A stretch of DNA of 64,000 nt from Actinomycetota bacterium (GCA_046537785.1 JBKHKD010000007.1:10832-74831); one strand, 5' to 3'. Positions 9,275 through 55,878 are shown, counted from the first letter of the stretch. Numbers and translations: made by a program. Notes: generated from the sequence alone by a model not told the origin.

Positions 9275-11275
<2,001 letters not shown>

Positions 11276-40255: not shown

Positions 40256-40952
40256 CGTCGAGGGTGTCCATGCGGTGGCCGCGGCGCTGGCCGCCGGGCG
40301 TGTAGAGCGGCTCTACGTCGAAGAGGGCAGGCGGGAACGTATCGGCGAGCTTTTGAATGCAGCCGACGAGGACATGGTGAAGTTCGTTGAGGATGTCCGC
40401 TCGCTCGCCGACACGGACGCACCACAGGGTGTGGTCGCACGCTGTCGGCCTATTCAGCCGGTGACGCTGGACACCCTCTCATCTGAGGACGCCGCGGTTC
40501 TCGTGCTGGACCACATCGAGGATCCGCACAATGTCGGTGCTGCGGCGCGAAGCGCACGGGCGGCCGGGGTCGGTGGGATGATCGTTTCAGATCGGCGCGC
40601 CGCTCCTATGTCCGGGACGACGTTCAAGGCTGCGGCCGGAGCTCTGGAGACGCTGCCCGTGGCCATCGTCGGGTCCATCCCCGAGGCGCTGAGCCGGCTC
40701 AAGGACGATGGCGTCTGGGTTGTCGGCCTTGAGGCGGATGGTGATCAGAGTCTCTTCGATCTAGACCTGCTCACCGAGCCGGTGGCGGTGGTAGTCGGTG
40801 CGGAAGGCTCCGGTCTCGCCGAGTTGACCCGGAAGCGATGTGATGTGCTGGCTTCGATCCCGATGGCAACGAATACCGAGAGTCTCAACGCCTCAGTTTC
40901 CGCTGCGCTGGCGTGCTTTGAGATAATGAGGGTGCGCAGCAGGCCGCGTTAG
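40230..40952 (+). CDS. rlmB: 23S rRNA 2'-O-methyltransferase, SpoU/TrmH family (RlmB-like)
   Basis: It has SpoU motifs (HNVGAAARSA; ESLNASVSAAL). Its last 10 nt overlap the 5' end of tRNA-Thr. Confidence 0.85.
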   Translation: MAPAGYGDSVEGVHAVAAALAAGRVERLYVEEGRRERIGELLNAADEDMVKFVEDVRSLADTDAPQGVVARCRPIQPVTLDTLSSEDAAVLVLDHIEDPHNVGAAARSARAAGVGGMIVSDRRAAPMSGTTFKAAAGALETLPVAIVGSIPEALSRLKDDGVWVVGLEADGDQSLFDLDLLTEPVAVVVGAEGSGLAELTRKRCDVLASIPMATNTESLNASVSAALACFEIMRVRSRPR

Positions 40953-41018
40953 CTCAGTTGGTAGAGCAGCTGATTTGTAATCAGCAGGTCGTCGGTTCGA
41001 CTCCGGCACGCGGCTCCA
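40943..41018 (+). tRNA. tRNA-Thr (anticodon TGT), CCA encoded
   Basis: I folded it by hand: acceptor GCCGCGT/ACGCGGC, anticodon stem GCTGA/TCAGC with loop TTTGTAA, T arm GTCGG-TTCGACT-CCGGC, then T-CCA. Confidence 0.92.
40974..41016. repeat. attL core (43 bp, anticodon loop to 3' end of tRNA-Thr)
   Basis: It is identical base for base to 51132-51174 (TTTGTAATCAGCAGGTCGTCGGTTCGACTCCGGCACGCGGCTC). The flanking bases differ on both sides. Confidence 0.9.
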
Positions 41019-41119
41019 AGATAAGACAGAAACCCCGTTGTAACTGGTGGTTTCCGGTAATACCTCCTCGTGTCATTGACTCTGGTTAGACTGGCACTAC
41101 GCTAGCACAGCGGATAACA

Positions 41120-42010
41120 ATGGCAACTGATTCTCTCCCGATCCCCGACCTCCTCGACTCATTCGAACTTCACCTCCGCGCTAAAAACCGTGCTGAGAAG
41201 ACGATCAAATCGTATCGGGAGGCTGTGACACAACTCGCCGGCCACGTCGACGGCAAGCCCTCCGACCAGATAACCAACCAGGACGTCGAAAGCTATCTGG
41301 CCGCGGTCCTCGCCAAAAACGCCCCGGCGACGGCCCGCCAGAGGTACGCGTCACTCGTCCAGTTTTTCAAGTGGGCTCACGCCGAAGGCGAGATACCCGA
41401 CAACCCGATGGACCGCGTACAACCCCCACAACTCGCAGAGCAACCCGTCCCGGTGCTCACCCCCGCCGATCTAAGCGCCCTGATTCGGGCGGCGAAAGGT
41501 CAGGGGTTCGAGGAACGCCGAGACGAAGCCCTCATCCGAATGTTTGCTGATACCGGCGTCAGGCTGGGAGAAATGGCCGGTCTCCGCGTCGGTGACGTAG
41601 ACCTGAACCTCGCCGTCGCCGTCGTCAAGGGGAAGGGCTCGAGGTTTCGCACAGTCCCATACGGCGACAAGACCCGCGAAGCACTCGACCGCTACCGACG
41701 CCAACGGATGCGACACGAGTACGCCGACCTCGAAGCCTGGTGGCTCGGCCGCAAAGGTGCGCTCACCGACTCAGGGATAACGCAGATCCTCAGACGCCGC
41801 GCCAAAGACGCCGGACTCGACGGTCTACACGCCCACCAATTCCGCCACAGCTTCGCGCACCAGTGGCTCGCGCAGGGCGGCAACGAAGGCGACCTGCAAC
41901 GGATCGCCGGATGGTCAAGCCCGCAGATGCTGCAACGGTACGGCAAGTCGGCCGCGGACCAGAGGGCGCGGGAGAACTACCGCAATAATCCGTTATGGGG
42001 GGACCTGTGA
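41120..42010 (+). CDS. tyrosine recombinase / phage-type integrase
   Basis: It has a SAM-like N-terminal domain (LHLRAKNRAEKTIKSYREAV) and a catalytic domain with R (GVRLGE), HQFRHSF and LQRYGK (Tyr). Confidence 0.9.
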   Translation: MATDSLPIPDLLDSFELHLRAKNRAEKTIKSYREAVTQLAGHVDGKPSDQITNQDVESYLAAVLAKNAPATARQRYASLVQFFKWAHAEGEIPDNPMDRVQPPQLAEQPVPVLTPADLSALIRAAKGQGFEERRDEALIRMFADTGVRLGEMAGLRVGDVDLNLAVAVVKGKGSRFRTVPYGDKTREALDRYRRQRMRHEYADLEAWWLGRKGALTDSGITQILRRRAKDAGLDGLHAHQFRHSFAHQWLAQGGNEGDLQRIAGWSSPQMLQRYGKSAADQRARENYRNNPLWGDL

Positions 42011-42282
42011 CAACCTTTGTTGTCCGATGCAACGTCGACGGCCATCGCCAGGCCATCGGGACAATCGAACTCGGCCCGGACGGAATCGAACTGGTGCGCA
42101 AGGCCCCGATAGACGGAGTACAGACCGGCAATAAGCCACTCTGGCTGCACCGCCGGTCGCATCTCACGCACACAGAGCTATCTCAGGAGCCTGATTCCGT
42201 GGTTGAGTTCTACTGCCCGCGACACGGAATTGGTGAGAAGGCCTTTAGTGAAATCCAGCGAGCGATCCGAGAAGTCAGATAA
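42007..42282 (+). CDS. hypothetical protein
   Basis: The ORF has good GC3. The GTG at 42007 overlaps the integrase stop (GTGA); ATG 41995 is an alternative. I recognise no family. Confidence 0.45.
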   Translation: MTTFVVRCNVDGHRQAIGTIELGPDGIELVRKAPIDGVQTGNKPLWLHRRSHLTHTELSQEPDSVVEFYCPRHGIGEKAFSEIQRAIREVR

Positions 42283-42389
42283 CCAAGGTCCGCTGTGCTA
42301 TATTGAGAAGCACATAGGAATACGCCCCCAGGCCTAGCCGGAATAGGACCTCGCCCGTCGGGCACGGTGAGAGAACAGGAGTTCTCCAC

Positions 42390-42659
42390 ATGCCTAGGGG
42401 TATTTCCAACCTCACACCCGAAGAGCGGAGCCTCAGAGCCCGACTCGCAGCCCACACGCTGCATTCCAAGGTCGACCCGACCAAACACACCGAACCCGCC
42501 CGCGCGGCGTTCATGGATCGGTTTCTCGATGAAGTAGACCCGAACCGGGAGCTATCCGAAGCTGAACGCCACCGCCGAGCCGAACACGCCCGCAAAGCGT
42601 ACTTCTACCGGCTGTCGCTGAAATCTGCTCAAGCTCGCCGGAAGGCGGGTGTGGCATGA
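42390..42659 (+). CDS. hypothetical protein (basic helical, of a type recurring near actinobacterial integrases)
   Basis: An AGGAG SD lies 8 nt upstream. The protein reads ...PARAAFMDRFLDEVDP...ERHRRAEHARKAYFYRLSLKSAQARR. The family assignment is from memory only. Confidence 0.55.
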   Translation: MPRGISNLTPEERSLRARLAAHTLHSKVDPTKHTEPARAAFMDRFLDEVDPNRELSEAERHRRAEHARKAYFYRLSLKSAQARRKAGVA

Positions 42660-43075
42660 GCCGCTTCGACCAGAGAGAAAGCGGCCCCCGCCAAGAGGCC
42701 GCTTCCCAAACATCGGCTACCACACCGACCAACAAGGACAAGGATAACAGGCCAAGCCAATACGACCGAGTGCTTTCGGTCCTTCTGGAACACGGCGAAG
42801 TCTGCGGACACCACACGTTCTATGCGTCGATGATGATTCCCCGGTTCGGCGCGCACCTGAACCGCATGAAAAATCGGGGCATCCTCTGGTCTAAGCGGCC
42901 GTGTGACCGCCACAACCATGAGGGCACCGCGTACCTGTATCGGTTGGAGTCGGTCCCAGCGCCCGCGGAAGGCGAACCGTGCCCGGCTTGTGGCGGCCGG
43001 CTGGCCTGCGTGTCTGACTGTCGCGCCCGTTCTTTAGATATGGGCACTCTGCCTTTCGTGGAAGGGTCGGCGTGA
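42656..43075 (+). CDS. putative winged-helix DNA-binding protein with C-terminal CxxC
   Basis: It overlaps the previous gene by ATGA. The segment QYDRVLSVLLEHGEVCG...RFGAHLNRMKNRG looks wHTH-like, and CPACGG follows. Confidence 0.5.
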   Translation: MSRFDQRESGPRQEAASQTSATTPTNKDKDNRPSQYDRVLSVLLEHGEVCGHHTFYASMMIPRFGAHLNRMKNRGILWSKRPCDRHNHEGTAYLYRLESVPAPAEGEPCPACGGRLACVSDCRARSLDMGTLPFVEGSA

Positions 43076-43081
43076 CGGCTC

Positions 43082-43345
43082 ATGGCACTCTCACTAGTCC
43101 GCGCCATACCCGGCGCGCCCGAAGACGTCAGAGCCGCCGTAGAAGCCGCCCACGCGGCCCTACACGAGACCCGGTGTCAAGCCTGGCTGAGAGCCACCGG
43201 CCACCGGCCAGTCAGCCCGTATGCGGCGAACCGTCGAACCGCTGTCATGCTCGACGGGAAAGACAGTCCAGTCCCGGTCGCCAAGACCGCTGTCCCGGTC
43301 CGTGGGGAGTCCTGCGAATACCACCCGGTCGAGGAGTCGCCGTGA
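43082..43345 (+). CDS. hypothetical protein
   Basis: This frame has normal composition and GC3, unlike the Arg-rich overlapping frame of track ORF 43072. Confidence 0.45.
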   Translation: MALSLVRAIPGAPEDVRAAVEAAHAALHETRCQAWLRATGHRPVSPYAANRRTAVMLDGKDSPVPVAKTAVPVRGESCEYHPVEESP

Positions 43346-43947
43346 TTACCGGCGAAGCGTTCTGGACGGTCGCCCAAAGGGAATACGCCGCGGACCGATC
43401 CTGGCACGTCGAGCAAGCCGGTAAACCCTTCTTCTCGACGGTGTTCAATGAGACACTCGATGACTTCCTGGCCGACAACCCGGACAGACGCGGCGATGTA
43501 ATCGGCTATTACCTGCTCGCCTGGTACGAACTCTACGAGCCGCACGAACTCCCGAACGGCGACCCAACAATGGAGCGCGAGTTTTCAGAGGAATGCGACC
43601 GATTCGACGGCCACCTGCAAGCCCTCGCCAACGGCAAGCCAGCCAAGACCGAGAAGTCGGCTGGCGATAAGTGGGCGAGTCCTGGCCGTCTCGTCTGTAC
43701 CTGGCCCGACCTCGACCTAACCGCCCGCGCGGTCCTGTTCGTAATGGCCGCCCACGGACGCGACGACGGATCTAACTGTTTCGTCTCGCAGGCGACTATT
43801 GCCGAATACTTGGGGTTGTCTCAGGTCGAGACGGTGCGGCGAGCTTGGCGGCGACTCGAGAAGGCCGGGGCAATCAAGCAGACAGCGAAGGCGACTCAAC
43901 AGAAGCCGCCGACGTATCGGATCAACCGAGGACCGAGGGTCGTATGA
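43342..43947 (+). CDS. HTH-domain protein (replication-initiator or regulator-like)
   Basis: The GTG at 43342 overlaps the previous stop (GTGA). It has a C-terminal HTH (CFVSQATIAEYLGLSQVETVRRAWRRLEKAGAI). The iteron array starts 8 bp downstream. Confidence 0.55.
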   Translation: MITGEAFWTVAQREYAADRSWHVEQAGKPFFSTVFNETLDDFLADNPDRRGDVIGYYLLAWYELYEPHELPNGDPTMEREFSEECDRFDGHLQALANGKPAKTEKSAGDKWASPGRLVCTWPDLDLTARAVLFVMAAHGRDDGSNCFVSQATIAEYLGLSQVETVRRAWRRLEKAGAIKQTAKATQQKPPTYRINRGPRVV

Positions 43948-44201
43948 GCACCTATCCAGACCCCTACCACCGTAGGGGGGTACCAAGTCCAGACCCCTAC
44001 GACGACGCGCTCAGACCCCTACCGCCACGCGCTCAGACCCCTACCGCCGTAGGGACTAAGAGTCTTAAGAGACTCAAGAACGCTCCACCGCGCCGCCCTG
44101 AAGGGCGGGCGGCGTCGCTTCAAGAACGCGACCGTCTGATTCTGGACATCGTTGAGTGGGCTCAACTCGCCGCGGAAGGCATCGAGGGGTACCGCCGATG
44201 A
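43944..44201 (+). CDS. hypothetical Pro-rich ORF overlapping the iteron array
   Basis: The frame is open with an ATGA overlap, but its first ~100 nt are the repeats, so coding status is uncertain. Confidence 0.3.
   Translation: MSTYPDPYHRRGVPSPDPYDDALRPLPPRAQTPTAVGTKSLKRLKNAPPRRPEGRAASLQERDRLILDIVEWAQLAAEGIEGYRR
43955..44054. repeat. iteron array, 4 copies of CAGACCCCTAC
   Basis: The cores are at 43957, 43990, 44012 and 44034, giving spacings of 33, 22 and 22 bp. Copies 1 and 4 are embedded in CCCTAC..GTAGGG palindromes. Confidence 0.7.
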
Positions 44202-44428
44202 GAGAGTCAGCCTTCAACAAAGCCCGTCGATACCTCACCGAAGGCCGACTGTTAGTTGTCGCTGTCAATGAAAACCGCATCGACGCGTTATGCCGCGGAG
44301 ACGGCCGCATCTACTCGCTGGGACTCAACCCGGGAGGCGTCTGGTCTTGTGACTGTCCCGCGCGTACCGACCAATGCGCCCACCTACGAGCCCTCCGATT
44401 GGTCACGATTGAGGGAGGCCACCAGTGA
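44198..44428 (+). CDS. SWIM zinc-finger protein
   Basis: It has a CxCxnCxH pattern (WSCDCPARTDQCAHLRAL) and is 76 aa. Confidence 0.6.
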   Translation: MRESAFNKARRYLTEGRLLVVAVNENRIDALCRGDGRIYSLGLNPGGVWSCDCPARTDQCAHLRALRLVTIEGGHQ

Positions 44429-44700
44429 CCGAGAGATTGACATTCAGTTGCGCGGCATGTGGCTGGGAGTCCCGACCCCCCGCCGGCGTCGAAATGGTCT
44501 TCCACCCCTGCTCCGCCACCCGGACCCGCAGACAGCTCCGCCGGACCGCACACCGGGCCGTCGTCTCCCTCCAGGACCGCACCCTCGTAGACCGGGAGGA
44601 GATCCAGGAGGCTGACCGGGAACGCTGGCGGGAGGAGTCCCCCGTCGTCCAATCCCTCGAGACCGTGCTCGGGGAAGCCGCACTCAGGAGCGTCGACTAA
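44425..44700 (+). CDS. hypothetical protein (CxxC near N-terminus)
   Basis: It overlaps the previous gene by GTGA and has good GC3. Confidence 0.45.
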   Translation: MTERLTFSCAACGWESRPPAGVEMVFHPCSATRTRRQLRRTAHRAVVSLQDRTLVDREEIQEADRERWREESPVVQSLETVLGEAALRSVD

Positions 44701-44870
44701 TGGTGGCCTGGCGCGTCCAATACTTCCGTGAAGGCTCCCCCTACCCCGTCTCCCGATACCACCACGGCGACCAAGCCGAGAAGGAAGCGAAAGCCGAAGC
44801 CGCCGAACTCCGGGACCGCGGCGTCACCAACGTCGAAGTGAAGCGGATCGAGAAAGGATCGAAACCATGA
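44700..44870 (+). CDS. hypothetical small protein (56 aa)
   Basis: This ORF is not in the supplied track because it is under 60 aa. Its ATG overlaps the previous TAA. The translation is MVAWRVQYFREGSPYPVSRYHHGDQAEKEAKAEAAELRDRGVTNVEVKRIEKGSKP. Confidence 0.4.
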   Translation: MVAWRVQYFREGSPYPVSRYHHGDQAEKEAKAEAAELRDRGVTNVEVKRIEKGSKP

Positions 44871-44982
44871 ACCCGATTTTTTTAGAGGCGTTTAGGAGCG
44901 GCGAGTACACTCCTGGCGTCTCTCTCCCCTGCGTGCCGAGGCCCATTTTTGAGCGGCGCTCAAAGTCTGCGGGTGGCCGCTG

Positions 44983-45339
44983 ATGGCTGACTCACCGGGC
45001 GAGCGGCTCCGGGCGGCGATCCTTGAGACCTACACGCTCGACGCTGGCGAGATGGTCCTGCTCGATCAGGTGGTCGAAGTGTGTGACGCCCTGGAGCGGG
45101 TGAACCGGGACGTGGCCGCGTTGGACGTGCTGACCTCGACGGGTTCGGCCGGCCAGGAAGTCGAACATCCGTTGCTGAAAGCCCAGCGGGACTATTCGGC
45201 GTTGTTGGCGCGGATGGTCGAGGCGTTGCGTCTCCCGGCGCCGGGCGCGGCCGAGGACGAGGAGGGCGAGTCACAGATCACCCACTTGGCGCGGAAGGCC
45301 GCCCGCGCCCGTTGGGAGAAAGCGAGAACTGATGGCTAG
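44983..45339 (+). CDS. phage terminase small subunit-like protein (P27/actinophage TerS type)
   Basis: The pattern ...LDAGEMVLLDQVVEVCDALERV...TSTGSAGQEVEHPLLKAQRDYSALLARMVEALRLP...ARKAARARW matches my recollection of actinophage small terminases. I ran no search. Confidence 0.55.
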   Translation: MADSPGERLRAAILETYTLDAGEMVLLDQVVEVCDALERVNRDVAALDVLTSTGSAGQEVEHPLLKAQRDYSALLARMVEALRLPAPGAAEDEEGESQITHLARKAARARWEKARTDG

Positions 45340-45625
45340 ACGACAGAGACGCGACCGCGGGCCGTTCAAACTCCCGGCGAAGCTGGTCCCTGATCTTGAC
45401 GATTGGGGATCTGAGGCTGAGGAGGAGAAGCGGCGACTACGAAACGAGTGGCTTCGGGCGACCGACCAGGCAGACCGGTATTTCTTTGAGTGGCTGCCCG
45501 CGTACCTGGCCGAGCGGCGAAGGCTCGCGGGGAGACCAACACCGCCGCCGCCGAGACGCCGCGGGCCGCTCCCCGACCGCGTGAAGGCGTTGCTGGCCAG
45601 CATGGAGAGTGGGGAGGACGAGTGA
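45332..45625 (+). CDS. hypothetical protein
   Basis: It overlaps the TerS-like gene by 8 nt and is charged and Arg-rich with a Pro tract. Confidence 0.45.
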   Translation: MARRQRRDRGPFKLPAKLVPDLDDWGSEAEEEKRRLRNEWLRATDQADRYFFEWLPAYLAERRRLAGRPTPPPPRRRGPLPDRVKALLASMESGEDE

Positions 45626-45849
45626 GACGCCGCGCGTACCCGTTCACCGCGCCGGCGCGGGTGACCCCCGAGTCGGTGGTCGGTGTTGTCGTGACGGTCG
45701 ATCCGATATCGGTGGATATGCCGACGAGGGTTCGGGTGGAGCGCCAGCTGGCTGGTGCTCTCAAGGTTCTGGGAATGGAGATTGTCCCAGTTGAGAAAGC
45801 AAGCCGTCCCTGGTGGCGGCGCAAGACGAACCGAGGAGGTTCACAATGA
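45622..45849 (+). CDS. hypothetical protein
   Basis: The GTG at 45622 overlaps the previous stop (GTGA). It is the C-terminal part of track ORF 45490. Confidence 0.4.
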   Translation: MRRRAYPFTAPARVTPESVVGVVVTVDPISVDMPTRVRVERQLAGALKVLGMEIVPVEKASRPWWRRKTNRGGSQ

Positions 45850-46340
45850 GAAAAGAAGAAGTGTCGACAACTGAGACTGAAGTCTTGTCGATGTGTGACG
45901 GATGCCGGCTAATCCCGGTCAGTCATCTAGGGCTGGACATCACCGAGCCGGTGCGCGGGTTCGCGTACATGCTCGCCGCCAACGGCATCGAGGTTGTCGA
46001 GGACGACATCGGGCGCCCGTCGATTAGCCGGGATGACCTTGGCTGGCTTCTTGCGGAACGTCGGGAGCGTGAGGCACGCCGGGCCGCGGAAGCGGAAGAG
46101 CGCCGCGCCCAAGCCAAGCCCAATGTCGTCCTCGCCGGCGTCCCTGCCCAGGAAGGAGCGACCCCGTTCGAGGCGATGATGGCCGCGGAGAGCAACTACG
46201 TGACCCCCGACCGCGAGTTTGGTCGTCCTGGTGCCGGAACGGCGACGCAAGAGCTGCTGGAACAGCAATTCGCTGAGGGCCGGCGCCGGGACGCGGAGCG
46301 GAAGGCGAAGGCACGCAAGAAGAAGCAGGCCAAGTCGTGA
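45846..46340 (+). CDS. hypothetical protein with central charged helix and Lys-rich tail
   Basis: The ATG at 45846 overlaps the previous stop (ATGA). It contains an ERREREARRAAEAEERRAQ coiled-coil-like segment. Confidence 0.5.
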   Translation: MRKEEVSTTETEVLSMCDGCRLIPVSHLGLDITEPVRGFAYMLAANGIEVVEDDIGRPSISRDDLGWLLAERREREARRAAEAEERRAQAKPNVVLAGVPAQEGATPFEAMMAAESNYVTPDREFGRPGAGTATQELLEQQFAEGRRRDAERKAKARKKKQAKS

Positions 46341-46702
46341 GCCGGGTTACGTCGATTCCAGTTGTCGCTCTCGGCAAGGACTCTGATGGCCGGCCTACGC
46401 GGCTGTCGCTTCCAGGGACGGTCTCGAAGCCTGTCCCTATCAGGTCCGGCGGCCGGAAGATCGGCGAGGTTGCCCGCGACGGCTCGGTGTCATGGACTCC
46501 TGCCGGCAGCGCCGCGTCGTTCGAGGAAATGGTCGCCATTTCTGATGGTCTCGATCAGGCGAAATGGTCCCGGCGTCGGCTGCGTGCCGCCCTCTCCGGC
46601 GACAAGGTCGTGGCGGTTGTCGTACCAGCGAAGCGCCGTAAGACCGCGGTGGCGCCCCGGTTCGAGAAAGCCCCCGGCGGGTCTGTCCTCGACGTCCGGT
46701 AG
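46337..46702 (+). CDS. hypothetical protein
   Basis: It overlaps the previous gene by GTGA and has good GC3. Confidence 0.45.
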   Translation: MSRVTSIPVVALGKDSDGRPTRLSLPGTVSKPVPIRSGGRKIGEVARDGSVSWTPAGSAASFEEMVAISDGLDQAKWSRRRLRAALSGDKVVAVVVPAKRRKTAVAPRFEKAPGGSVLDVR

Positions 46703-46710
46703 ACAAGACA

Positions 46711-46965
46711 GTGAACGACGTCGCGCGTGTCCTCGAGCTACGGGATCGGCTCCCTAACGAGTGGGCCGGCCTGTTGACCCGGAGCGCGCAGGCCCTCGCC
46801 GCGGTCCAAGCCGAGACCGTCGACGAGGGCCGGTGCCGCGGCTGCGGGTCGGCTCTCCCGCCACAGGACCGCGGACGGCCGCGGAAGTGGTGCCAGGCCG
46901 CCCATTGCCAGCGAAAGTCGAAAAACGGCAGGAAAAAGGCGGGAAAAAGGACTATGGGGTCGTGA
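46711..46965 (+). CDS. hypothetical protein with C-terminal Cys-rich basic motif
   Basis: CRGCG...GRPRKWCQAAHCQRKSK resembles the GRPRxYCSxxCR tails seen in actinobacterial mobile-element proteins. This comparison is from memory. Confidence 0.45.
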   Translation: MNDVARVLELRDRLPNEWAGLLTRSAQALAAVQAETVDEGRCRGCGSALPPQDRGRPRKWCQAAHCQRKSKNGRKKAGKRTMGS

Positions 46966-47150
46966 TGGCTCCGATAGTCGACCAGAAAGCGTTAGAGGAC
47001 TTCATCGAGCACGCCGACCTCGATGAGGCTCGCCGGGCCGAGGCCGCGTTAGGGGCGATGGCCGCTTCGGTCCGGTTGAGAGTCGTCGAACTCGAAACCC
47101 GGCGCTCCAAGGAGTTGACCGTGTATCCCGCTGATCGAAAAGGAGACTAA
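46965..47150 (+). CDS. hypothetical small protein (61 aa)
   Basis: The ATG at 46965 overlaps the previous TGA. It is the C-terminal part of track ORF 46761. Confidence 0.4.
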   Translation: MAPIVDQKALEDFIEHADLDEARRAEAALGAMAASVRLRVVELETRRSKELTVYPADRKGD

Positions 47151-47153
47151 CCA

Positions 47154-49088
47154 ATGAGCATGCTTGCTCGACGACTTACAGTTCATAACCCTGCCGAAAA
47201 CGGGAACGGCGGGAACGGCGGAGAGACGACTGACGTGTTGACGTCCGATGCGGCGTGGACATGGTTCCACGACCCCCGCGCCACCTACCATTCGGGCACC
47301 CACAACCGAACCTATGTGACCTGGACTGCATCCGATGGGATCTGGGTCGGAGCCTACGACCATTCAACTAACGAGTGGTTCGACTTCCGGCTTACCGACG
47401 CCGACCAGGACGACCACCATGTCGCCGCGTTAGGCGTCCGCACCGACGGCCGAATCCTCGCCTGCTACTCCGAACACAACGGCGACCTGATGCAACGGAT
47501 CTCTGTCGACGCCGAGGACGTGTGGGACTGGCCGTTACCCGAAACACTCGACACGGCCCATTGCACCTACCCGAATCTGATCTATCTCTCATCAGAGAGC
47601 CGCTGGTATCTCTTCTACAGCACCGGAGAGGGTTCCACAGATAAATGGCGGTATCGCACTTCGGACGACGACGGCGACACCTGGTCCACAGACACGATTC
47701 TATGGGAACCCGGCAGTGGAAAGATCCCTTACATGAAGGTCGCCTCCGACGGTGTCGACCAGATCCACTTCGGAATGACCGACGACCACCCCGACGACGC
47801 CGACTCCAGCATCTACCACCTCCACTACGACGACGGAACCTGGCGCGACTCGGACGGCACCGACATCGGCTCCCCTTCCTTTGACACGACCGACGTGACT
47901 CAGGTGTACGACGGCGTGGCAGGAGATCCGGCGTGGATCTGGGATGTCGCCCCCGGCCCGGTGATGGTCTTCGCCACTCTGCCGTCGAGCACAGACCACC
48001 GTTACCAGTACGCCAAACTCAATGGCTCCTGGGATGTCAACGAAATCACAGGCGCCGGGAAACACATCTATGAAGGCACCAGCGAGCCGCAGTATTCCGC
48101 CGGGGTGGTGTTGGACCATGCGGACACAGACGTCGTTTATCTCGCCCGGGAAGTGGTGACAGATCGTTGGGAGTTGGAGAAGTGGACGACCAGCGACGGC
48201 GGCACGTCATGGTCGTCGACAGCTATCACGGAGAACTCCGACCCGGCTCCGGATAAGAACTTCCGGCCGATGGTGCCCCGCGGAGCCAGCCCGTTCGACG
48301 TGATCTGGTGCCGAGGCGAATACAACACTTACACCGACTTCGCCTCGGATCTGGCGGTCGAGCCTGCCGTCGTGGTCGACAACGCCGACCAGCCCACAGT
48401 TCCCACCTTGGACGTGACTTCCGGTCTTCTCCAGTGGGTCGACGCCAGCGAACTCACCGGCCTGGAGACTGGCGACGGAGTCGGAACTTGGGAGGACGAG
48501 TCGGGCAACGGCCACGACAAGACCGGCACCGCGGGCTCCTGGCCTATCTACACCGAATACATTTTCGGAACCCTGCCAGCAGTCCACTTCCGTCCGGGGG
48601 ACGTCATGGAGACAGCCGCCGGAGTGCCTGTCGCCGCAGCATCCGACTGGACCGAGTTCATCGTCCTCATCCCGACCGCATGGGAAGGCCTAAACCCTGG
48701 CTTGTGGCGGTCGGACTCTGACAGCAAAGGCGACACGTTCTTCATCTTTAATTCGAACACGGGGAGGCCGTGGGTCCGGTGGAACGGCACCGAGATCCTC
48801 CAACCATCCTCCGGATGGGCGGCGTCACTCGACGAGCGGATCGTCATCGCGTTGCAGGTCGAAGACGCCACATCGGTCGACTTCCGAGTCAACGGCACTC
48901 TCGAGCATTCGGACACTCACGCCGCTTCGAATCCGTCGATGTCGATCTACAACTGGTTCTGGCAGAACGACACCGGCCAGCGGGTGGAGGGCTATTACGC
49001 CGAACGGATCGCCTACGACCGCCTCCTCACCTCAACCGAAGTGGAGGACGTCGAGGACTATCTGATGGAGAAGTGGTCGGTCGCATAA
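47154..49088 (+). CDS. BNR_4-like beta-propeller protein with C-terminal LamG/concanavalin-like domain
   Basis: An AAAGGAG SD precedes the start. The N-terminal ~400 aa (WFHDPRA...DDHHVAALGVRTDGRILACYSEH...SDDDGDTWS...SSIYHLHYDDGTW) look like the sialidase-like BNR_4 family. The C-terminal ~200 aa are lectin/LamG-like. Confidence 0.65.
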   Translation: MSMLARRLTVHNPAENGNGGNGGETTDVLTSDAAWTWFHDPRATYHSGTHNRTYVTWTASDGIWVGAYDHSTNEWFDFRLTDADQDDHHVAALGVRTDGRILACYSEHNGDLMQRISVDAEDVWDWPLPETLDTAHCTYPNLIYLSSESRWYLFYSTGEGSTDKWRYRTSDDDGDTWSTDTILWEPGSGKIPYMKVASDGVDQIHFGMTDDHPDDADSSIYHLHYDDGTWRDSDGTDIGSPSFDTTDVTQVYDGVAGDPAWIWDVAPGPVMVFATLPSSTDHRYQYAKLNGSWDVNEITGAGKHIYEGTSEPQYSAGVVLDHADTDVVYLAREVVTDRWELEKWTTSDGGTSWSSTAITENSDPAPDKNFRPMVPRGASPFDVIWCRGEYNTYTDFASDLAVEPAVVVDNADQPTVPTLDVTSGLLQWVDASELTGLETGDGVGTWEDESGNGHDKTGTAGSWPIYTEYIFGTLPAVHFRPGDVMETAAGVPVAAASDWTEFIVLIPTAWEGLNPGLWRSDSDSKGDTFFIFNSNTGRPWVRWNGTEILQPSSGWAASLDERIVIALQVEDATSVDFRVNGTLEHSDTHAASNPSMSIYNWFWQNDTGQRVEGYYAERIAYDRLLTSTEVEDVEDYLMEKWSVA

Positions 49089-49755
49089 CCGCGAACAGGA
49101 CGGCGACGGCCAAACCATTGAACACCACCAGGCCCGCACGGTATTCGGGGACGAGCGTCCACACGCCGACAATGATCGCCGCGTGAAGGACCGCGCCGAA
49201 ATACAGGGCGAATCTGGGACGCCACCACAGAAGCGGCACCATTGCCAGTTCGGCGACGATCGTCCCCCAGACGATCAGACCTGTGGGGAGTGTGCCGAAC
49301 AACATAAGGGCGCCGTCCCGGTTCAATAACTCGCCAGATAGCCACCCTGGATGAAGTTTCGCGACTCCGGCGAACAAGTACAACGCAGTCATCTGAGTGC
49401 GTAGCAGAAGACGGCGTTGTGCCGTGTCGGGGAACCCGGCGACTAACACGGCGACGAGAAACAAGAACATCTCATGGTTGGTGTCGACGATCGGTGTGAG
49501 TACGACAGCGACGCCTGCAGCCCCCAACCTCGGCGCGACGAACCCGACAGCGGCCGATGCTAGGAGCGCTGCCGCGATCCAGACATTCGCAACGGTGAGT
49601 GCCTTGATGACCGCCGCAGCGAGCAGCGTCCAAACGATTACCCGGTGCTGTACATCATCCAACCGTAGGGCGTGACGTCGCCGGTCAACACGCGGTAGAA
49701 CAAAGCGGCCAGTGGCACTCCGAACTGGAGCACCAAGACCACTGATACCACCCAC
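49027..49755 (-). CDS. HTTM-like polytopic membrane protein
   Basis: It has multiple TM helices, and LYLFAGVAKLHPGWLSGE resembles the HTTM signature. Its 3' end overlaps the convergent 47154-49088 gene by 62 nt. Confidence 0.55.
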   Translation of the reverse strand: MGGISGLGAPVRSATGRFVLPRVDRRRHALRLDDVQHRVIVWTLLAAAVIKALTVANVWIAAALLASAAVGFVAPRLGAAGVAVVLTPIVDTNHEMFLFLVAVLVAGFPDTAQRRLLLRTQMTALYLFAGVAKLHPGWLSGELLNRDGALMLFGTLPTGLIVWGTIVAELAMVPLLWWRPRFALYFGAVLHAAIIVGVWTLVPEYRAGLVVFNGLAVAVLFAVMRPTTSPSDSPRRPPLRLR

Positions 49756-49887
49756 TGTGGACGCACTCCTTCCCGTTTCACGCCTTTCACCCTACCGCCC
49801 GACCCTGACCCGTCTATAGGGGATTAGCCCCATAAAGGAGGCTCGCCGTCTAAGCCACATTTCCCGGCCGAGCCTCACTCACCCTTG

Positions 49888-49925
49888 ACGAAAAGAACCC
49901 CCGCGGCACCACCCGCGGGGGTTCT
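49888..49925 (-). terminator. intrinsic terminator of the 3-gene minus-strand operon
   Basis: A 13-bp perfect stem (AGAACCCCCGCGG / CCGCGGGGGTTCT) with a 6-nt loop is followed on the minus strand by TTTCG. It lies 71 nt after the stop at 49996. Confidence 0.8.
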
Positions 49926-49995
49926 CGTGTTCCCGGCCCTTCCCGTCGAGCATCCGGGTAGAGAGCGAAAGGAGCCGGGCCGGGAAGATTGTGGG

Positions 49996-50433
49996 TTACA
50001 GGTGTTTCTCCCAGTAGGGGCGAAGCGTCTCGATGGCTTCATCGCACGCCCGGCCAACGACCCCGTCGGCAGGGGGTTCGTCTTGGAGGGCTCGCCACTC
50101 TGCCTCATACGCTGAGAGCACCTTCACTAGAAGCGAGTTCTTAGCCAACACCCGCGCCACGTCTTGGGCCATCTCCGTCGTCCCAAGGCCTGTGTCGGCG
50201 TATTCGACGACCAGGTCGACGATGCTCTCCACTCCTTTGATGCCAAGTTTCGTGGCCCCCGGCGCGGCATCCTCGATGGCCGTTCTGACCGCCCGACGCC
50301 GCGCCTTTTCCGCTTCATCGAACTTCTTGAACGCCGCCAAGAACGCTTCACTGTCACCCGCGTCCCGCGCAGCGTCTATTTCCTCGAGGCCCTTTTGGCG
50401 GGCTTCTTCGATCTTCTCCGTGGTGGTAGTCAT
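49996..50433 (-). CDS. hypothetical acidic helical protein (145 aa), operon gene 3
   Basis: A GAGGAGGAG SD precedes the start, which overlaps gene 2 by ATGA. I recognise no family. Confidence 0.6.
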   Translation of the reverse strand: MTTTTEKIEEARQKGLEEIDAARDAGDSEAFLAAFKKFDEAEKARRRAVRTAIEDAAPGATKLGIKGVESIVDLVVEYADTGLGTTEMAQDVARVLAKNSLLVKVLSAYEAEWRALQDEPPADGVVGRACDEAIETLRPYWEKHL

Positions 50434-50735
50434 TCTGTCTCCTCCTCTTTACAGGCAGCATTAGCCGCGGCCCGGACCATCGCCTTCGCGAATCCGGCCG
50501 CAATGTGCTGGCCGTCGCCCCGGCGCATCCGATCCGACCTGTTGGCCGAAAACGAGTCCATGATGCCGGCGACGATCCCGACGACGTAGACCCCGTCGTA
50601 TAGGTCGCTGTAGGTGTCCATGTGGGCTGCGTAGTCGTACAGCTCTGATCCGATGTCTTCGAGTCGGTTCTGGTCGCGGATCGCGTCCCAGTCGATGCTC
50701 TCGATCTCCTCGCGGATCTGTTCCTCAGTGGTCAT
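50430..50735 (-). CDS. hypothetical protein (101 aa), operon gene 2
   Basis: A GAAGGAG SD precedes the start, which overlaps gene 1 by ATGA. It has an acidic N-terminus and one hydrophobic stretch (GVYVVGIVAGIM). Confidence 0.6.
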   Translation of the reverse strand: MTTEEQIREEIESIDWDAIRDQNRLEDIGSELYDYAAHMDTYSDLYDGVYVVGIVAGIMDSFSANRSDRMRRGDGQHIAAGFAKAMVRAAANAACKEEETE

Positions 50736-51034
50736 TTCGTTTCTCCTTCTGTTGTTTCCGCCAGTCGGCGGTGGTCGTATGTGGCGTCGGCGTATACGTC
50801 GTGGTACTTCCCGGTGTCGCTGATGGCGATGTCGAGCGCTCCCCGGAGCAGGCGGTCGAGTTCTTCGACCATAAGACGAGCGAGGGACAGATCCGCCACC
50901 ACGGATGCCGGTATCTCGTCGTGCTTGTAGGCGAGCTGCATACGCGGCTCGAGGGCTTCTAGCTCAACCATGGCGATGGTGATAGACCGTCGTGCCCTCC
51001 GATAGTCGCCTCGATGGAACGGTGAGCGTGTCAT
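50732..51034 (-). CDS. hypothetical protein (100 aa), operon gene 1
   Basis: A GGGAGG SD lies 5 nt upstream of the ATG at 51034. I recognise no family. Confidence 0.6.
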   Translation of the reverse strand: MTRSPFHRGDYRRARRSITIAMVELEALEPRMQLAYKHDEIPASVVADLSLARLMVEELDRLLRGALDIAISDTGKYHDVYADATYDHRRLAETTEGETK

Positions 51035-51131
51035 GTACCTCCCTAGGTGGTGGACAGTGGATAACTTCCCCTGTCCGGTGGTTGCTGACCTGGGGTTTCA
51101 CCTATCTGGCACAGCGTTTACCCGGCCCTAC

Positions 51132-51174
51132 TTTGTAATCAGCAGGTCGTCGGTTCGACTCCGGCACGCGGCTC
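51132..51174. repeat. attR core (43-bp copy of the tRNA-Thr 3' part, no 5' tRNA half)
   Basis: It is identical to 40974-41016. Confidence 0.9.
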
Positions 51175-51470
51175 AGCCTTGATGGTGGACCGACTTTGAC
51201 CCTTGCCTCCGATCGTCGCCCGTTGCTCGTAGGCAGGGGGTTCCACCCTCACTGCCCGCGTCAGCAGTGATCAGGTGGGTTTAACAGACGCCGGTCGGCC
51301 TACATCGCCGCTCGGCCGAATCGCAAACAGACGCCGGGTCGGGCCGCATCGCTGATAGGTCGATTGGCGAATTGACCCCCAGCGTCACCCAAAGGCCGTG
51401 GCCGGTCGGCCCGCATCGTCGGACCGCCAAATCCTCAGTCGTGAACGTCGCCGGTCTTACTCTTTCTGCG

Positions 51471-51701
51471 ATGCTTAACGAAGAGGACAGGGCGATCCTC
51501 GACTTCGAACGTGCCGCCTGGCTCGAACCGGGACCAAAGGATCAAGCGATCGAGATGAGTCTCGGTTTGTCCGCGGCCGAGTACTACGAGCGGCTCCGCT
51601 CGATGGTGTCAGGTCGTGCTGCGTTGGCTTACGACCCGCTGACCACTAAACGTGTTCTGACCATCATCGAAGATCCGATCGAGGCCGGACTGGCAATCTG
51701 A
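51471..51701 (+). CDS. DUF3263 domain protein
   Basis: LNEEDRAILDFERAAWLEPGPKDQAI...SAAEYYERL is typical of DUF3263. I trimmed to the ATG at 51471. Confidence 0.7.
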   Translation: MLNEEDRAILDFERAAWLEPGPKDQAIEMSLGLSAAEYYERLRSMVSGRAALAYDPLTTKRVLTIIEDPIEAGLAI

Positions 51702-52258
51702 TGACCAACAAGGGGAGACACGCGTCGCAAACGCCGGGAACGTTCTATCGCGACCTGGCGATCATGATTCTTGGCATCCTCGTTGTGGGAGCGGCCGTCT
51801 TCTTTCTGCTCTACCTATTCGCCAACCAGCCGACGACGGGGCCGATCACGACCACCACAACCACCACGGTCGCAGAGACCACCACGACGGCCGATGCCAC
51901 CACCACCACGACGGCCGATACCGACACCACGACGACGACGCTGTCCGACACGTCCACGACTGTGGAGGTCAGGCAGCCTTCCGAGGTGACTGTCGTGGTG
52001 CTCAACTCGATGGGTCTCGACGGGGCCGCGGGGAGGAAGACGACCGAGGTGTCCGAAGCCGGATACCAAACGCTGACGCCCGACAACTTCACTCCGGAGC
52101 AAGACCCCTCCCGCATCTGGTATCGGGAAGGGTTCGCCGCCGAAGCATCGCGGCTGCTCGACTTTCTTCCCGATGCCACGGTCGAATCCCTGCCCGACGA
52201 AACGCTCCAGGAGGGAGCCGACGTCATCCTCGTGCTTGGTACCGGATACACGGAATGA
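51701..52258 (+). CDS. LytR_C domain membrane protein
   Basis: It has an N-terminal TM, a Thr-rich linker and a C-terminal LytR_C-like domain (VVVLNSMGLDGAAGRKT). Confidence 0.7.
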   Translation: MTNKGRHASQTPGTFYRDLAIMILGILVVGAAVFFLLYLFANQPTTGPITTTTTTTVAETTTTADATTTTTADTDTTTTTLSDTSTTVEVRQPSEVTVVVLNSMGLDGAAGRKTTEVSEAGYQTLTPDNFTPEQDPSRIWYREGFAAEASRLLDFLPDATVESLPDETLQEGADVILVLGTGYTE

Positions 52259-53112
52259 CCCGTCTGGCGGTCGGTTTCGGCCGTGCGTTCCCAAGAGTCT
52301 GGCTTCTGCCGATTGGCGCACTGACTCTGATCCTGGGGGTTGCGGTGAGCGGACGGCTGAGCCGATCGATCGCAGCCGATCTTCTCGCCTGGTGGCCGGT
52401 ATGGCTCGGGTTGGCTGCAGCGGCCTACTTCCTTCGCGACAAGAAGTTCGGCACTCTCCGTGCCGCGGGCCTCGTGCCTCTCGTTGCCTTGATCTTTGTT
52501 GGCCTGTTCCTGTGGGGGCATCTGGCCGGTTGGACGGTCATGCCCTCAGCGGCGCATCGCCTCGTCGGTCCGGAATCCGACGGCTTTACCGAGGCATCTC
52601 TTGAGGCCGGGATAGACGGCGAGATCAACGTCAGAGGGGGATCCGAGTTCCTCTACCGCGTCGAGCCGGTGAGGGCCGGGGGCATCATCGGGATACCAGG
52701 CGCCAACGAGCAACTAGTCGACTCCGCGGTCTCGGTCGAGCTCGAGGCGCCTGCCAACCCCGGTGTGTTTTCCTTTGCAGGATGGCACCTGTTCCTCTCA
52801 AAGACGCCACGCTGGTCGTTGTCGCTCAATGGGGCGATCGACGCCGATCTCACGAACCTCACCGTGAGCGAACTGGAATTCGACGGAGATGGCACCGTTC
52901 GGCTGGGTTCCGTCGACCAGGAGATCCCGGTGACGGTGGACGGCTCATTCGATGTGATAGTCCCACCTGACACACCCGCACGGGTTGTCGGAGTGGCTTC
53001 AGTTCCCGCGTCCTGGTCTGTGGTCGATCGAGGCGCCACGGCACCGGCTTCCGGAACGGGATGGGTTATCAACGTGGTCACCGACGCAGACGTGACCGTA
53101 GCCGAGGGTTAG
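52255..53112 (+). CDS. hypothetical membrane protein with beta-rich C-terminal domain
   Basis: It has 3-4 N-terminal TM helices. The start overlaps the previous stop. Confidence 0.5.
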   Translation: MTRLAVGFGRAFPRVWLLPIGALTLILGVAVSGRLSRSIAADLLAWWPVWLGLAAAAYFLRDKKFGTLRAAGLVPLVALIFVGLFLWGHLAGWTVMPSAAHRLVGPESDGFTEASLEAGIDGEINVRGGSEFLYRVEPVRAGGIIGIPGANEQLVDSAVSVELEAPANPGVFSFAGWHLFLSKTPRWSLSLNGAIDADLTNLTVSELEFDGDGTVRLGSVDQEIPVTVDGSFDVIVPPDTPARVVGVASVPASWSVVDRGATAPASGTGWVINVVTDADVTVAEG

Positions 53113-53137
53113 CCGACGACGATAGACTCATCTGACT

Positions 53138-54364
53138 GTGTCCAGCGACCGTCTGCGACAAATCGCACTTGCCATCTGGATCGCCGTCGGGTTGGTCGCT
53201 CTCGGGTGGGTGTTCCTAGTAATCGGAGAGGCAATCAGGATTATCTGGTTGCCTCTCGCTTTCGCGGCCGGCCTCGTCTTCCTCCTCGAGCCAGCGGTCA
53301 AGGTCTTCGAACGTCTTCGCCTCCCCCGGTTGGTCGGCGCGATTCTCGCCTTTCTGGCGCTGACTGCGGTGATTGTGGCCGTTGGTTCTCTGGTGTGGCC
53401 CACGGTTCAGGCACAGGGCGCCGAACTCATCGAACAACTACCCGACCTGTACGTGGCTGTCGTCGAGTGGCTGCGGGAGGCGGCCCGCACACTCGGAGTC
53501 AACATCGACGAACTTCTGTCCCAGGAAGCCATCGAGGCGTGGCTGCGCGATCCCGCCAACCAGGCGACCATCCAGGACCTGCTGTTCGGTTTCGGGGCCG
53601 GGGCTGGTGTCGTCCTGCGGGGGGTGGCCGAGACCATCGCCGTCGTAGGGCTGGCGCCCGTCCTGGCGATCTACCTGCTGATGGACCTCGACAGGTTCAA
53701 GAAGCAGTTTCTCGAGCTGACACCGCCGAACCATCGCAGCGAGGTGGCTTACGTGAGCGGAGAAGTGGGCACGGCGCTGGGTTCGTTCGTGCGGGGCCAG
53801 CTTATCGTGGCGCTGATGGTCGGTATCGGCTCCAGCGTGGGGATGTGGGCCATCGACCTCCCCTTCTGGCTGATCGTCGGAATCGTTGCCGGTTTCTTGA
53901 ACCTGATCCCCTTCCTTGGACCGGTCGTGGGTGGCGCCTTGGCCGCACTGGTCGCTCTCCTCAACGCTGATCCCTGGCAGGCGGTCTGGGCGGTACTCAT
54001 CATGACCCTGGTCCAGCAGATCGATAATCATCTGATCACTCCCGCGATCCAGAGGGCTCGGGTCAACCTGTCACCGCTGGCCATTGTCCTGGCTCTGATC
54101 ATTGGTGGTGCCCTCGCCGGCATCCTGGGAGTCCTGGTCGCCATCCCGGCGACGGCGGCAATCAGGATCGTCGTGGGCCACTTCTGGCGGACCCGGGTCC
54201 TGGGACAGTCCTGGGAGGAGGCAAGCGAGGCCATGATCGAGGTCACCCCGCCTCCGGAGCGATTCGCGCGCATGCGGAGAAACCCGGCCCAAACCCGGCT
54301 GTTCGACACCCAGGAGATGACCCGCCTGAGCGATACCGAGGTTCCAGAAGACGAGAAGGTCTGA
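53138..54364 (+). CDS. AI-2E family (PerM/UPF0118) transporter
   Basis: It is polytopic, and ...GFLNLIPFLGPVVGG... is typical of the family. Confidence 0.85.
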   Translation: MSSDRLRQIALAIWIAVGLVALGWVFLVIGEAIRIIWLPLAFAAGLVFLLEPAVKVFERLRLPRLVGAILAFLALTAVIVAVGSLVWPTVQAQGAELIEQLPDLYVAVVEWLREAARTLGVNIDELLSQEAIEAWLRDPANQATIQDLLFGFGAGAGVVLRGVAETIAVVGLAPVLAIYLLMDLDRFKKQFLELTPPNHRSEVAYVSGEVGTALGSFVRGQLIVALMVGIGSSVGMWAIDLPFWLIVGIVAGFLNLIPFLGPVVGGALAALVALLNADPWQAVWAVLIMTLVQQIDNHLITPAIQRARVNLSPLAIVLALIIGGALAGILGVLVAIPATAAIRIVVGHFWRTRVLGQSWEEASEAMIEVTPPPERFARMRRNPAQTRLFDTQEMTRLSDTEVPEDEKV

Positions 54365-54482
54365 AGGACTGAATTCGTCTCGAGAGTCGTTTCACGTCTC
54401 ACATGGCCGTGGCACGGTTAGTCTTGCGCCCTGGATGCCCACGGGCACCCTGCATGTATGAAAGACAAACCTGGAGGAATGA

Positions 54483-55808: not shown

Positions 55809-55830
55809 TAACAACCGTCCATCGATCGAA

Positions 55831-55862: not shown

Positions 55863-55878
55863 TCATGCCTGGACCGGC

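Follow-up and report, generated by a model that had tools for sequence, protein, structure and literature searches.

What kind of mobile element occupies a threonine tRNA gene of an Actinomycetota bacterium, with an integrase at one end, a terminase-like gene in the middle and no recognizable capsid gene? We address this question for a 10.2-kb island at 40974–51174 of a 64,000-nt stretch of DNA (GCA_046537785.1, JBKHKD010000007.1:10832-74831; hereafter the window, from whose first letter positions are counted). A preliminary description, made from the sequence alone, had likened the island to phage-inducible chromosomal islands (PICIs). Our analysis favors an integrated, helper-dependent, PICI-like phage satellite of the small terminase (TerS) type, belonging to an undescribed family in high-GC actinobacteria. 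We give this reading of the gene content a probability of roughly 0.6. The hosts of the family are probably Mycobacteriales.

An insertion at tRNA-Thr with a phage-type small terminase

The tRNA-Thr(tgt) gene (anticodon UGU) is intact at 40943–41018 on the plus strand (ARAGORN; Rfam RF00005, 71.5 bits) and is the sole match of an Rfam scan. Its stretch from anticodon loop to discriminator region is repeated downstream as a perfect 43-bp direct repeat (repeat family D3, 100% identity, 10,158 bp spacing by repeat search). The left copy, 40974–41016, is the attL core. At the right copy, 51132–51174 (attR core), no tRNA is called and the sequence 5' of it is unlike a tRNA 5' half. This stretch of a tRNA is a classic target of tyrosine integrases. 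Between both repeats lie 10,115 bp with about 22 genes, of which the first encodes an intact 296-aa XerC/D-like tyrosine integrase without an arm-binding domain (41120–42010, plus strand; Phage_integrase 8.3e-25, SAM-like N-terminal domains, phrog_1 1.9e-51). Core actinobacterial genes flank the island: carD, ispF, cysS and a SpoU/RlmB-type methylase gene on the left, and DUF3263, LytR_C and AI-2E transporter genes on the right. The repeat coordinates, the integrase beside the tRNA and the nature of the flanks are all as the preliminary description had given them. The perfect 43-bp repeat at the tRNA 3' end, the intact integrase and the conserved core genes on both sides together show a discrete insertion, recent or maintained, within the 3' part of tRNA-Thr(UGU).

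Two public contigs end at these repeats. Contig JBKGZX010000034.1 of an independent assembly (GCA_046543195.1; L016) is 99.986% identical to window positions 51132–58258 (7.1 kb), and its first base is the first base of the attR repeat (L016 1–43 = window 51132–51174). Such a break would be expected from a mixture of occupied and empty sites and is consistent with one; it is not decisive. The Logan contig L019, which is 100% identical to window 40987–47690 and was our source of independent gene calls, starts 30 nt inside the attL repeat. This start has the appearance of a break made by short-k assembly at the repeat; it is uninformative on excision.

Island open reading frames (ORFs) of 55 aa or more were scanned against Pfam, PHROGs and NCBIfam, and island proteins also against PADLOC. 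The 118-aa product of the plus-strand gene at 44983–45339 is a P27/Terminase_4-like TerS by its match to phrog_1496 (‘terminase small subunit’, 8.5e-11); in Pfam it has no match at E ≤ 0.05. A profile of the TerS family finds only coiled-coil noise among PDB sequences, and thus no solved structure by sequence. By these searches the family is rare in public data: a collection of 5.8 billion proteins holds 14 close homologues, the full-length ones 64–93% identical. The wider superfamily comprises 1,248 clusters at E ≤ 1e-3 when a profile of the close homologues is run against a library of 1.84 billion representatives. Homologues with 35% identity are encoded by two IMG/VR viral contigs. The homologue on phage contig L006 matches Terminase_4 (PF05119) at a borderline level (8e-5, 23.4 bits, cut-off 24.7) and is directly followed by a 564-aa ORF of the size of a large terminase (TerL), an SPP1-type portal gene (2.8e-14) and a gene for major capsid protein E (2.7e-29). 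Since the L006 homologue occupies the canonical TerS position, the small-terminase assignment proposed for the island gene holds.

Just upstream of terS, at 44870–44965, lies a conserved non-coding element that can be aligned in six islands and whose two T-runs are invariant. In the other five islands, each designated by its contig, it is found at L008 2052–2150, L001 4035–4126, L009 355–444, L010 4890–4982 and L002 9938–10030. The element consists of a run of 5–8 T and, about 35–70 nt further on, a YTCC..TGCGWGC..GGCC..TTTTG block. It may serve as a pac/cos site or as a late promoter/operator. The 38-aa ORF called over it (44867–44983; GC content at first codon positions 0.51) is probably not coding. 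A terminator-like hairpin was also considered; RNAalifold gave no consensus fold and, judged by eye, the stem is interrupted in three of the islands (the window, L002 and L008), so the RNA reading was dropped. The T-runs stand out within 63%-GC DNA. Phage contigs with a 35%-identical TerS are otherwise roughly 63% GC and have 200 bp of extremely AT-rich DNA upstream of terS (L005 about 9620–9820, L006 about 9670–9870, L007 about 4900–5100), made up of repeated TTATTATATAATAAC / TAGCAAT..ATATATA units. In these phages the AT-rich region is probably the packaging site or genome end.

The TerS block and related islands

A conserved block of four genes begins with terS. The other three members encode proteins of 97 aa (45332–45625), 164 aa (45846–46340) and 121 aa (46337–46702), and a 75-aa gene (45622–45849) lies within the block; all are on the plus strand. 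None of these four proteins has a Pfam, PHROG or NCBIfam match. As relatives we took contigs encoding close TerS homologues and compared their genes with those of the window by blastp and tblastn. The order TerS-97-164 is kept in L001, L002, L008, L009 and L010 (in L001 the 97-aa gene is present though uncalled), and a homologue of the 121-aa gene follows in L001, L008 and L009. Phage contigs L005–L007 contain no homologues of the TerS partner proteins. Relative to L008, the closest relative, dN/dS is 0.087 for TerS, 0.17 for the 97-aa and 0.23 for the 164-aa protein (dS about 0.8–1.2). Values of 0.09–0.23 indicate that the block is maintained by purifying selection. The AlphaFold2 (AF2) model of the 164-aa protein (mean confidence score, pLDDT, 70) has a confident small N-terminal domain and long helices; compared with PDB folds it gives no significant match, only weak similarity to winged helix-turn-helix (wHTH) or MerR-like folds at E > 0.2. 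We propose that the 97-, 164- and 121-aa proteins form a hijacking or packaging-specificity module.

The genes around the block vary from island to island. The integrase is 43% identical to that of L001, which also adjoins tRNA-Thr(tgt), and 23–34% identical over partial alignments to those of L002, L009 and L010; islands with the block target tRNA-Thr and tRNA-Val. Across the family, the replication module is HTH_36 with iterons, AAA_25, DUF3631, or Prim-Pol with PriCT_1 and AAA_25. L001 encodes a 357-aa AAA_25 protein directly followed by iterons of its own. L008, whose TerS is 93% identical, has an AAA_25 replication protein, and L010 a 691-aa Prim-Pol, PriCT_1 and AAA_25 primase-helicase. 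L002 (NCBI assembly GCA_041744475.1) has a DUF3631 protein, and L004, from a Mycobacteriales metagenome-assembled genome with a 40%-identical TerS, a 695-aa AAA_25 protein. At the place expected for a regulator, relatives carry HTH_3 and HTH_17 genes (both in L010, HTH_17 in L002). In L001, tRNA-Thr(tgt) at 588–662 and int (748–1683) lie on different strands, and no att repeat that would mark the limits of that island was found.

Three related islands could be delimited by att repeats: L002 (6056–15193; 47 nt, 9,091 bp spacing, tRNA-Val), L012 (139–10064; 48 nt, tRNA-derived, 9,878 bp spacing) and L015 (2229–12197; 27 nt, 9,942 bp spacing, tRNA-Leu). That the sizes fall so close together suggests a constraint set by packaging, in a series that mixes TerS-bearing and TerS-less islands, since L012 and L015 have no detectable TerS of this family. 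TerL is absent from every related island locus compared, and none of the roughly ten contexts examined is a full prophage.

Tail-type gene, absent functions and competing readings

The largest gene of the island, at 47154–49088 on the plus strand, ends the same gene string as terS and encodes a 644-aa protein of phage tail-module type. Described earlier as a BNR/LamG protein, it does match BNR_4 (5.8e-17), whereas LamG was not recovered by Pfam at E ≤ 0.05; Laminin_G_3 is present in some of its homologues. The AF2 model shows a beta-propeller at about residues 25–405 (pLDDT > 90), while residues 407–644 are modeled with low confidence and the C-terminal 215 aa have no PDB sequence match. An exact look-up of the 644-aa sequence returned no record; 16 homologues were found at E ≤ 1e-5, none above 51% identity. 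Two of them, both 46% identical to the island protein, are placed among tail genes. P0027 (767 aa) is encoded on a phage contig downstream of tape-measure, Dit-like minor tail and virion protein genes. A minor-tail PHROG is matched by the C-terminus of P0027 (6e-31), and the contig also encodes a terminase and a portal-protease-capsid fusion. P0025 (642 aa; BNR_4 and Laminin_G_3), which aligns from residue 1, lies between a tail-fiber gene and an endolysin/holin cassette. Among viral structures, Foldseek finds a minor tail protein of Mycobacterium phage PP (3e-19; the second-best match and the best named one), and among solved structures PL42, GH145 and PL24/25 rhamnose-glucuronate lyases and hydrolases (4e-14). 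The protein is therefore predicted, from sequence and model, to be tail-associated and glycan-degrading. The earlier statement that the island has no virion genes does not stand against these matches.

The position after the conserved block, held here by the 644-aa gene, is variable in the relatives and often taken by a phage structural-type gene. L012 has a 649-aa tape-measure-like protein there (5708–7657; phrog_3981, 6e-20), L002 a 286-aa prohead-protease-like protein (11418–12278; Peptidase_S78, 2.8e-8), L008 an FG-GAP propeller and L004 a DUF5074 propeller, next to ychF. Neither L008 nor L004 has a match among phage records for its large end gene. One idea is that these satellites use their TerS to steal capsids and in addition supply a tail-tip protein of their own, so that the 644-aa propeller would be built into helper-made tails, adsorption specificity would differ from that of the helper, and the variable position would be an exchangeable ‘particle-modifying’ slot. 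We regard this as a long shot.

No island protein matches a TerL, portal, capsid, protease, tape-measure, holin or head-tail connector family in Pfam, PHROGs or NCBIfam, nor an FtsK/SpoIIIE-type Tra protein, relaxase, primase, helicase, Nudix/Pif or Kor protein. There is no known defense protein by PADLOC and no NCBIfam match for any island protein tested. Six-frame tblastn searches, in which related phages and islands supplied the queries (TerL-like, portal, capsid, tape-measure, Dit, protease, HNH and primase-helicase proteins), gave a best E-value of 0.019. With both tblastn and domain scans empty, the island holds no pseudogene remnants of a larger phage. A tblastx comparison of phage loci with the whole window gave uninformative noise. 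The absences listed by the preliminary description (large terminase, portal, capsid, tape measure, FtsK/TraB, relaxase and primase-helicase) are thus borne out, as is its conclusion that the island is neither a complete prophage nor a conjugative element. Remnants of capsid, portal or TerL genes, or a Tra or relaxase gene, had been named there as signs of a decayed prophage or of an integrative and conjugative element (ICE), and none was found.

These searches bear on the reading of the island as a prophage deletion remnant. A temperate siphovirus at tRNA-Thr would have been stripped of everything from TerL to the tail except a single tail gene; int, early genes, terS and lysogeny-expressed morons would have remained with it, leaving an immobile locus. 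Such a history would fit the clear phage origin of terS and the tail-module gene, the isolated structural genes of L012 and L002 and the lack of a recognized regulator or excisionase. However, fragments of TerL, portal, capsid and tape-measure genes are present in no frame. No PHROG matches the genes that separate terS from the tail gene, yet their order is kept in five or more further small islands whose integrases and replication genes are unrelated, and full prophages are absent from the contexts examined. Purifying selection on the TerS block and perfect att repeats also speak against decay, and sizes converge on 9–10 kb, unlike the outcome of independent deletions. We consider a deletion remnant unlikely. 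A satellite family is preferred to independent prophage decay because a conserved packaging-linked block occurs together with integration and replication modules that are exchanged between islands, with sizes confined to a narrow range and with the consistent absence of TerL and capsid genes.

Purifying selection would be equally expected of a function that benefits the host, and the island could be a resident anti-phage or fitness island that is no longer, or never was, transferred in virions. TerS and its partners would then disrupt the packaging of invading phages, and the glycanase and a membrane protein would alter the cell surface against adsorption. Satellites and prophages commonly encode packaging-interference and surface-modifying functions (PMC10085698), and cargo lies at the att-proximal end here as in mycobacterial prophages (PMC10654092). 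This cargo consists of the four minus-strand genes that had been noted at the attR end. The first encodes a 242-aa membrane protein (49027–49755) with a weak HTTM match under the Pfam cut-off (4.3e-5). The other three encode proteins of 145 aa (49996–50433), 101 aa (50430–50735) and 100 aa (50732–51034) and were called from ORF and third-position GC content (GC3). Apart from HTTM, the four have no PADLOC, PHROG or Pfam match, and the lack of a PADLOC match for any cargo gene speaks against a defense island. Moreover, the 644-aa protein has no evident signal peptide, as read from its sequence, and its gene is at the end of a late-type operon rather than in a lysogeny-type position. The integrase, the perfect att repeats and the shuffled integration and replication modules of relatives indicate active horizontal movement, and interference can in any case coexist with satellite transfer. 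We judge a purely resident island improbable.

At the position where a PICI would have a primase-replicase, the island has a Rep-like gene and iterons. The Rep-like protein (43342–43947, plus strand, start from the L019 gene call) has 201 aa and a C-terminal wHTH domain (Pfam HTH_36, 1.7e-10), outside which nothing is recognizable. It resembles the N-terminal domains of PHROG replication initiators (phrog_270, 1.3e-7; O-like phrog_345 and phrog_391). The longest ORF begins at 43072, and its N-terminal extension is probably not coding. Ten bp past the stop codon begins an 88-bp iteron array (43957–44044) of four exact copies of CAGACCCCTAC, at 43957, 43990, 44012 and 44034 (spacing 33, 22 and 22 bp; TRF period 22). 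The sequence occurs nowhere else in the 64 kb, and four matches were reached in 0 of 100 shuffles, which bears out the four-copy array described earlier. The outer copies sit within CCCTAC..GTAGGG palindromes. The four iterons fall inside a called 85-aa ORF (43944–44201) with a weak coding signal (GC3 0.63); read as this ORF, they would encode a repeated P-D-P-Y motif. The array is a putative replication origin. Of the earlier ‘rep/ori’ label, the pairing of a wHTH protein with iterons stands; the resemblance to initiators is limited to the DNA-binding domain, from which we infer a replication function for the 201-aa protein.

A tRNA integrase and an iteron/Rep-like pair in an actinobacterium are also the backbone of an actinomycete integrative and conjugative element (AICE), and the island is close in size to pSAM2-type elements. 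It could accordingly be an integrative mobilizable or plasmid-like element, replicated through its iterons and moved by a conjugation system elsewhere, with the TerS-like protein as a DNA-binding accessory. Yet the Tra, relaxase, Nudix/Pif and Kor genes of such elements are missing, and neither the Rep-like nor the TerS-like protein has a match among 72,556 plasmids. The one gene that can be linked to transfer functions in phage packaging, and in a phage contig its homologue adjoins TerL-size, portal and capsid genes. This reading is therefore very improbable. Searches with the island DNA (megablast for the phages) and with the TerS, Rep-like and 644-aa proteins likewise gave no match among 50,697 phage records and these plasmids.

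Comparison with known elements

A PICI is defined by an integrase, a regulator (alpA, merR or stl), a primase-replicase, optional capsid morphogenesis and TerS; the median PICI has 9.5 kb and about 15 genes, and the SatelliteFinder model forbids tail, holin, portal and head-tail connector genes (PMC10085698). The island has an integrase at one end of a small element and a TerS. The capsid-morphogenesis gene, often missing from Gram-positive PICIs (PMC10085698), has no match in Pfam or PHROGs, and no alpA-, merR- or stl-type helix-turn-helix regulator is found by these databases among the small ORFs. Strict PICI membership fails because there is no primase-replicase, only the HTH_36 protein and iterons, and because a tail-type gene is present. 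The island also differs from capsid-forming PICIs (cf-PICIs) and phiRv-like elements (no capsid, protease, portal or TerL of its own), from an intact prophage (no TerL, portal, capsid, tape measure or lysis cassette in only 10.1 kb) and from AICEs and ICEs (no FtsK/SpoIIIE-type Tra, and no relaxase with a type IV secretion system). The parallel drawn by the preliminary description with PICI-type gene order is nevertheless upheld, in that the relatives share a TerS-led block in about 9–10 kb with no TerL and exchange replication modules, one of them a Prim-Pol/PriCT/AAA_25 primase-helicase.

Among the closest analogs in organization are Gram-positive PICIs of the SaPI type (pathogenicity islands from Staphylococcus aureus), such as SaPI1 and SaPIbov1. 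Like these islands of about 10–15 kb, the element has a site-specific tyrosine integrase, a putative initiator by an iteron-bearing origin, its own TerS (SaPI TerS redirects the helper TerL) among small genes, end cargo, and no TerL, portal or capsid gene. SaPI genes near terS interfere with the helper. Unlike SaPIs, the island shows no sequence kinship beyond the general TerS and integrase classes and no recognized Stl/Str-type divergent regulators. In place of a Pri-Rep helicase, its initiator would be a wHTH protein of 201 aa, the 97-, 164- and 121-aa proteins are unlike Cpm, Ppi and Pti, it has a tail-module gene, and its helper dependence is predicted from genes.

Among actinobacteria, de Sousa et al. 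(2023, PMC10085698) reported putative PICIs from Rhodococcus and from 66% of mycobacterial genomes, where most resembled phiRv1/phiRv2. For their own mycobacterial candidates, Amarh et al. (2023) required an integrase and a capsid gene, and they stressed that mobilization was not shown (PMC10654092). The island shares with these candidates a size of about 10 kb, an integrase, a frequent location at tRNA genes and a proposed helper dependence (PMC10085698, PMC10654092). Unlike it, phiRv-type candidates have a major capsid protein, in many cases together with a prohead protease, a terminase and a primase; the island has neither capsid nor protease. It thus fails the integrase-plus-capsid criterion of Amarh et al. 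(PMC10654092), and the signature of its family is TerS plus three uncharacterized genes. The Streptomyces satellites MulchRoom (integrase-bearing, isolated) and MiniFlayer (with its own tail fiber) have full capsid and packaging sets (PMC10690885). As in cf-PICIs and these two satellites, phage-derived morphogenesis genes are present; MulchRoom also has a tyrosine integrase, and MiniFlayer is an actinobacterial precedent for a tail-fiber gene of a satellite's own (PMC10690885). In contrast to the island, which has none of the capsid set, they encode TerL, portal, capsid and head-tail adaptors; the Streptomyces satellites have no recognizable replication genes, whereas the island has a Rep-like gene and iterons (PMC10690885). 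With AICEs of the pSAM2 type it shares a size of about 10 kb, a high-GC actinobacterial host, insertion at a tRNA 3' end, a tyrosine integrase and a putative replication function of its own. FtsK/SpoIIIE-like Tra and spread genes are absent from it, and AICEs have no terminase or tail genes.

The earlier remark that integrative satellites had not been characterized in this kind of host was too strong, given the published Mycobacterium and Rhodococcus candidates (PMC10085698, PMC10654092) and MulchRoom (PMC10690885). None of the published actinobacterial candidates is this TerS-only family, and mobilization of the mycobacterial ones has not been shown experimentally. Literature searches found no description of a TerS-only actinobacterial satellite family. 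PICI-like candidates in Mycobacterium and Rhodococcus are thus already published, and this TerS family appears to be undescribed.

Several points count against a helper-dependent satellite. Excision, replication, packaging, transfer and the helper itself are all read from genes. The ‘Rep’ is a homologue of initiators in its DNA-binding domain only, and the iterons overlap a called ORF. No repressor, AlpA, Xis or primase-helicase is recognizable by Pfam or PHROGs, and the TerS partners are three proteins with no assigned function, one of them modeled, with no significant fold match. The island carries a tail-module homologue, and tail genes are incompatible with a PICI in the SatelliteFinder model (PMC10085698). 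L012 and L015 share the 164-aa gene with no TerS of this family detected, and for the tape-measure-like gene of L012 and the prohead protease gene of L002 a reading as prophage debris would serve equally well. A short-k assembler may also produce a contig break at attR, as at other repeats. Finally, the GC content of the island (62.7%) equals that of its host flanks (63.2–63.4%), leaving no compositional signature.

Remaining genes, proposed cycle and significance

The L019 gene calls give 18 plus-strand genes from int through the 644-aa gene, where the preliminary description had counted about 17 short ORFs after int, most of them coupled. Four-nt ATGA or GTGA overlaps occur at 9 of the 17 junctions, an operon-like coupling. 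Directly after int, overlapping its end by 16 nt, is a 95-aa ORF (41995–42282) with no family match; a role in excision directionality is only a guess. Three early genes follow. The 89-aa one (42390–42659) matches phrog_2842 (unknown function, 1.6e-9) and shares 37% identity with its counterpart that follows int in L001; the 139-aa one (42656–43075) is 32% identical to the L002 gene after the HTH_17 gene; the 87-aa one (43082–43345) is called on L019 and has a GC3 of 0.73. Between the iterons and the element upstream of terS, L019 gene calls give a 76-aa gene (44198–44428) with a CxC..CxH SWIM-like motif and homologues in L012/L013 (52% identity) and L002, and genes of 91 aa (44425–44700) and 56 aa (44700–44870); none of the three has a family match. 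A 105-aa gene (46833–47150), also called on L019 and also with no family match, ends 3 nt before the 644-aa gene; an alternative to it is an 84-aa ORF at 46711–46965. All of these are on the plus strand. A promoter and terminator scan of the island gave background levels only.

Outside the island, the window has another threonine tRNA gene, tRNA-Thr(cgt) at 4784–4856, which is 36 kb upstream; nothing points to an insertion at this site, although no search aimed at it was made. The intergenic region between attR and DUF3263 contains three copies of a 33-nt unit (GCCGGTCGGCC.ACATCG...) at 51290–51433, 67–79% identical to the reference copy. Within the LytR_C gene, a repeat of 21-nt period with four CCACCACCACGACGGCCGAT-like copies (51855–51961) presumably encodes a Thr/Pro-rich low-complexity linker.

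If the island is a satellite, its genes suggest the following cycle. The element would stay integrated until a helper phage infects or is induced, and would then be excised by its integrase. The 201-aa wHTH protein would bind the four iterons downstream of its own gene, and replication would proceed through host or helper enzymes; related islands would use the primase-helicase found at the Rep position instead. The coupled operon from about 44198 to 49088 would then be expressed. TerS would recognize a site on the island, possibly the T-run element upstream of its gene, and recruit the helper TerL, so that the roughly 10 kb of island DNA would be packaged into helper-made capsids, with the 97-, 164- and 121-aa proteins biasing packaging or assembly toward the island. 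The 644-aa glycan-degrading protein may be built into the particles or may act as a lysogeny or late accessory, and the four minus-strand genes would be cargo.

In Mycobacteriales no phage satellite is known to have been mobilized in an experiment, and the published candidates are capsid-encoding and phiRv-like. A TerS-only family, which a screen for integrase and capsid would miss, would add to this order a second, SaPI-like strategy of hijacking. Its 97-, 164- and 121-aa proteins would be new candidate factors for interference with packaging or assembly. If it is true that the tail-type gene acts in particles, the island would be a satellite that retargets the virion of its helper. A compact (about 10-kb) integrating island of this kind would also offer a possibly transducible chassis for actinobacterial genetics.

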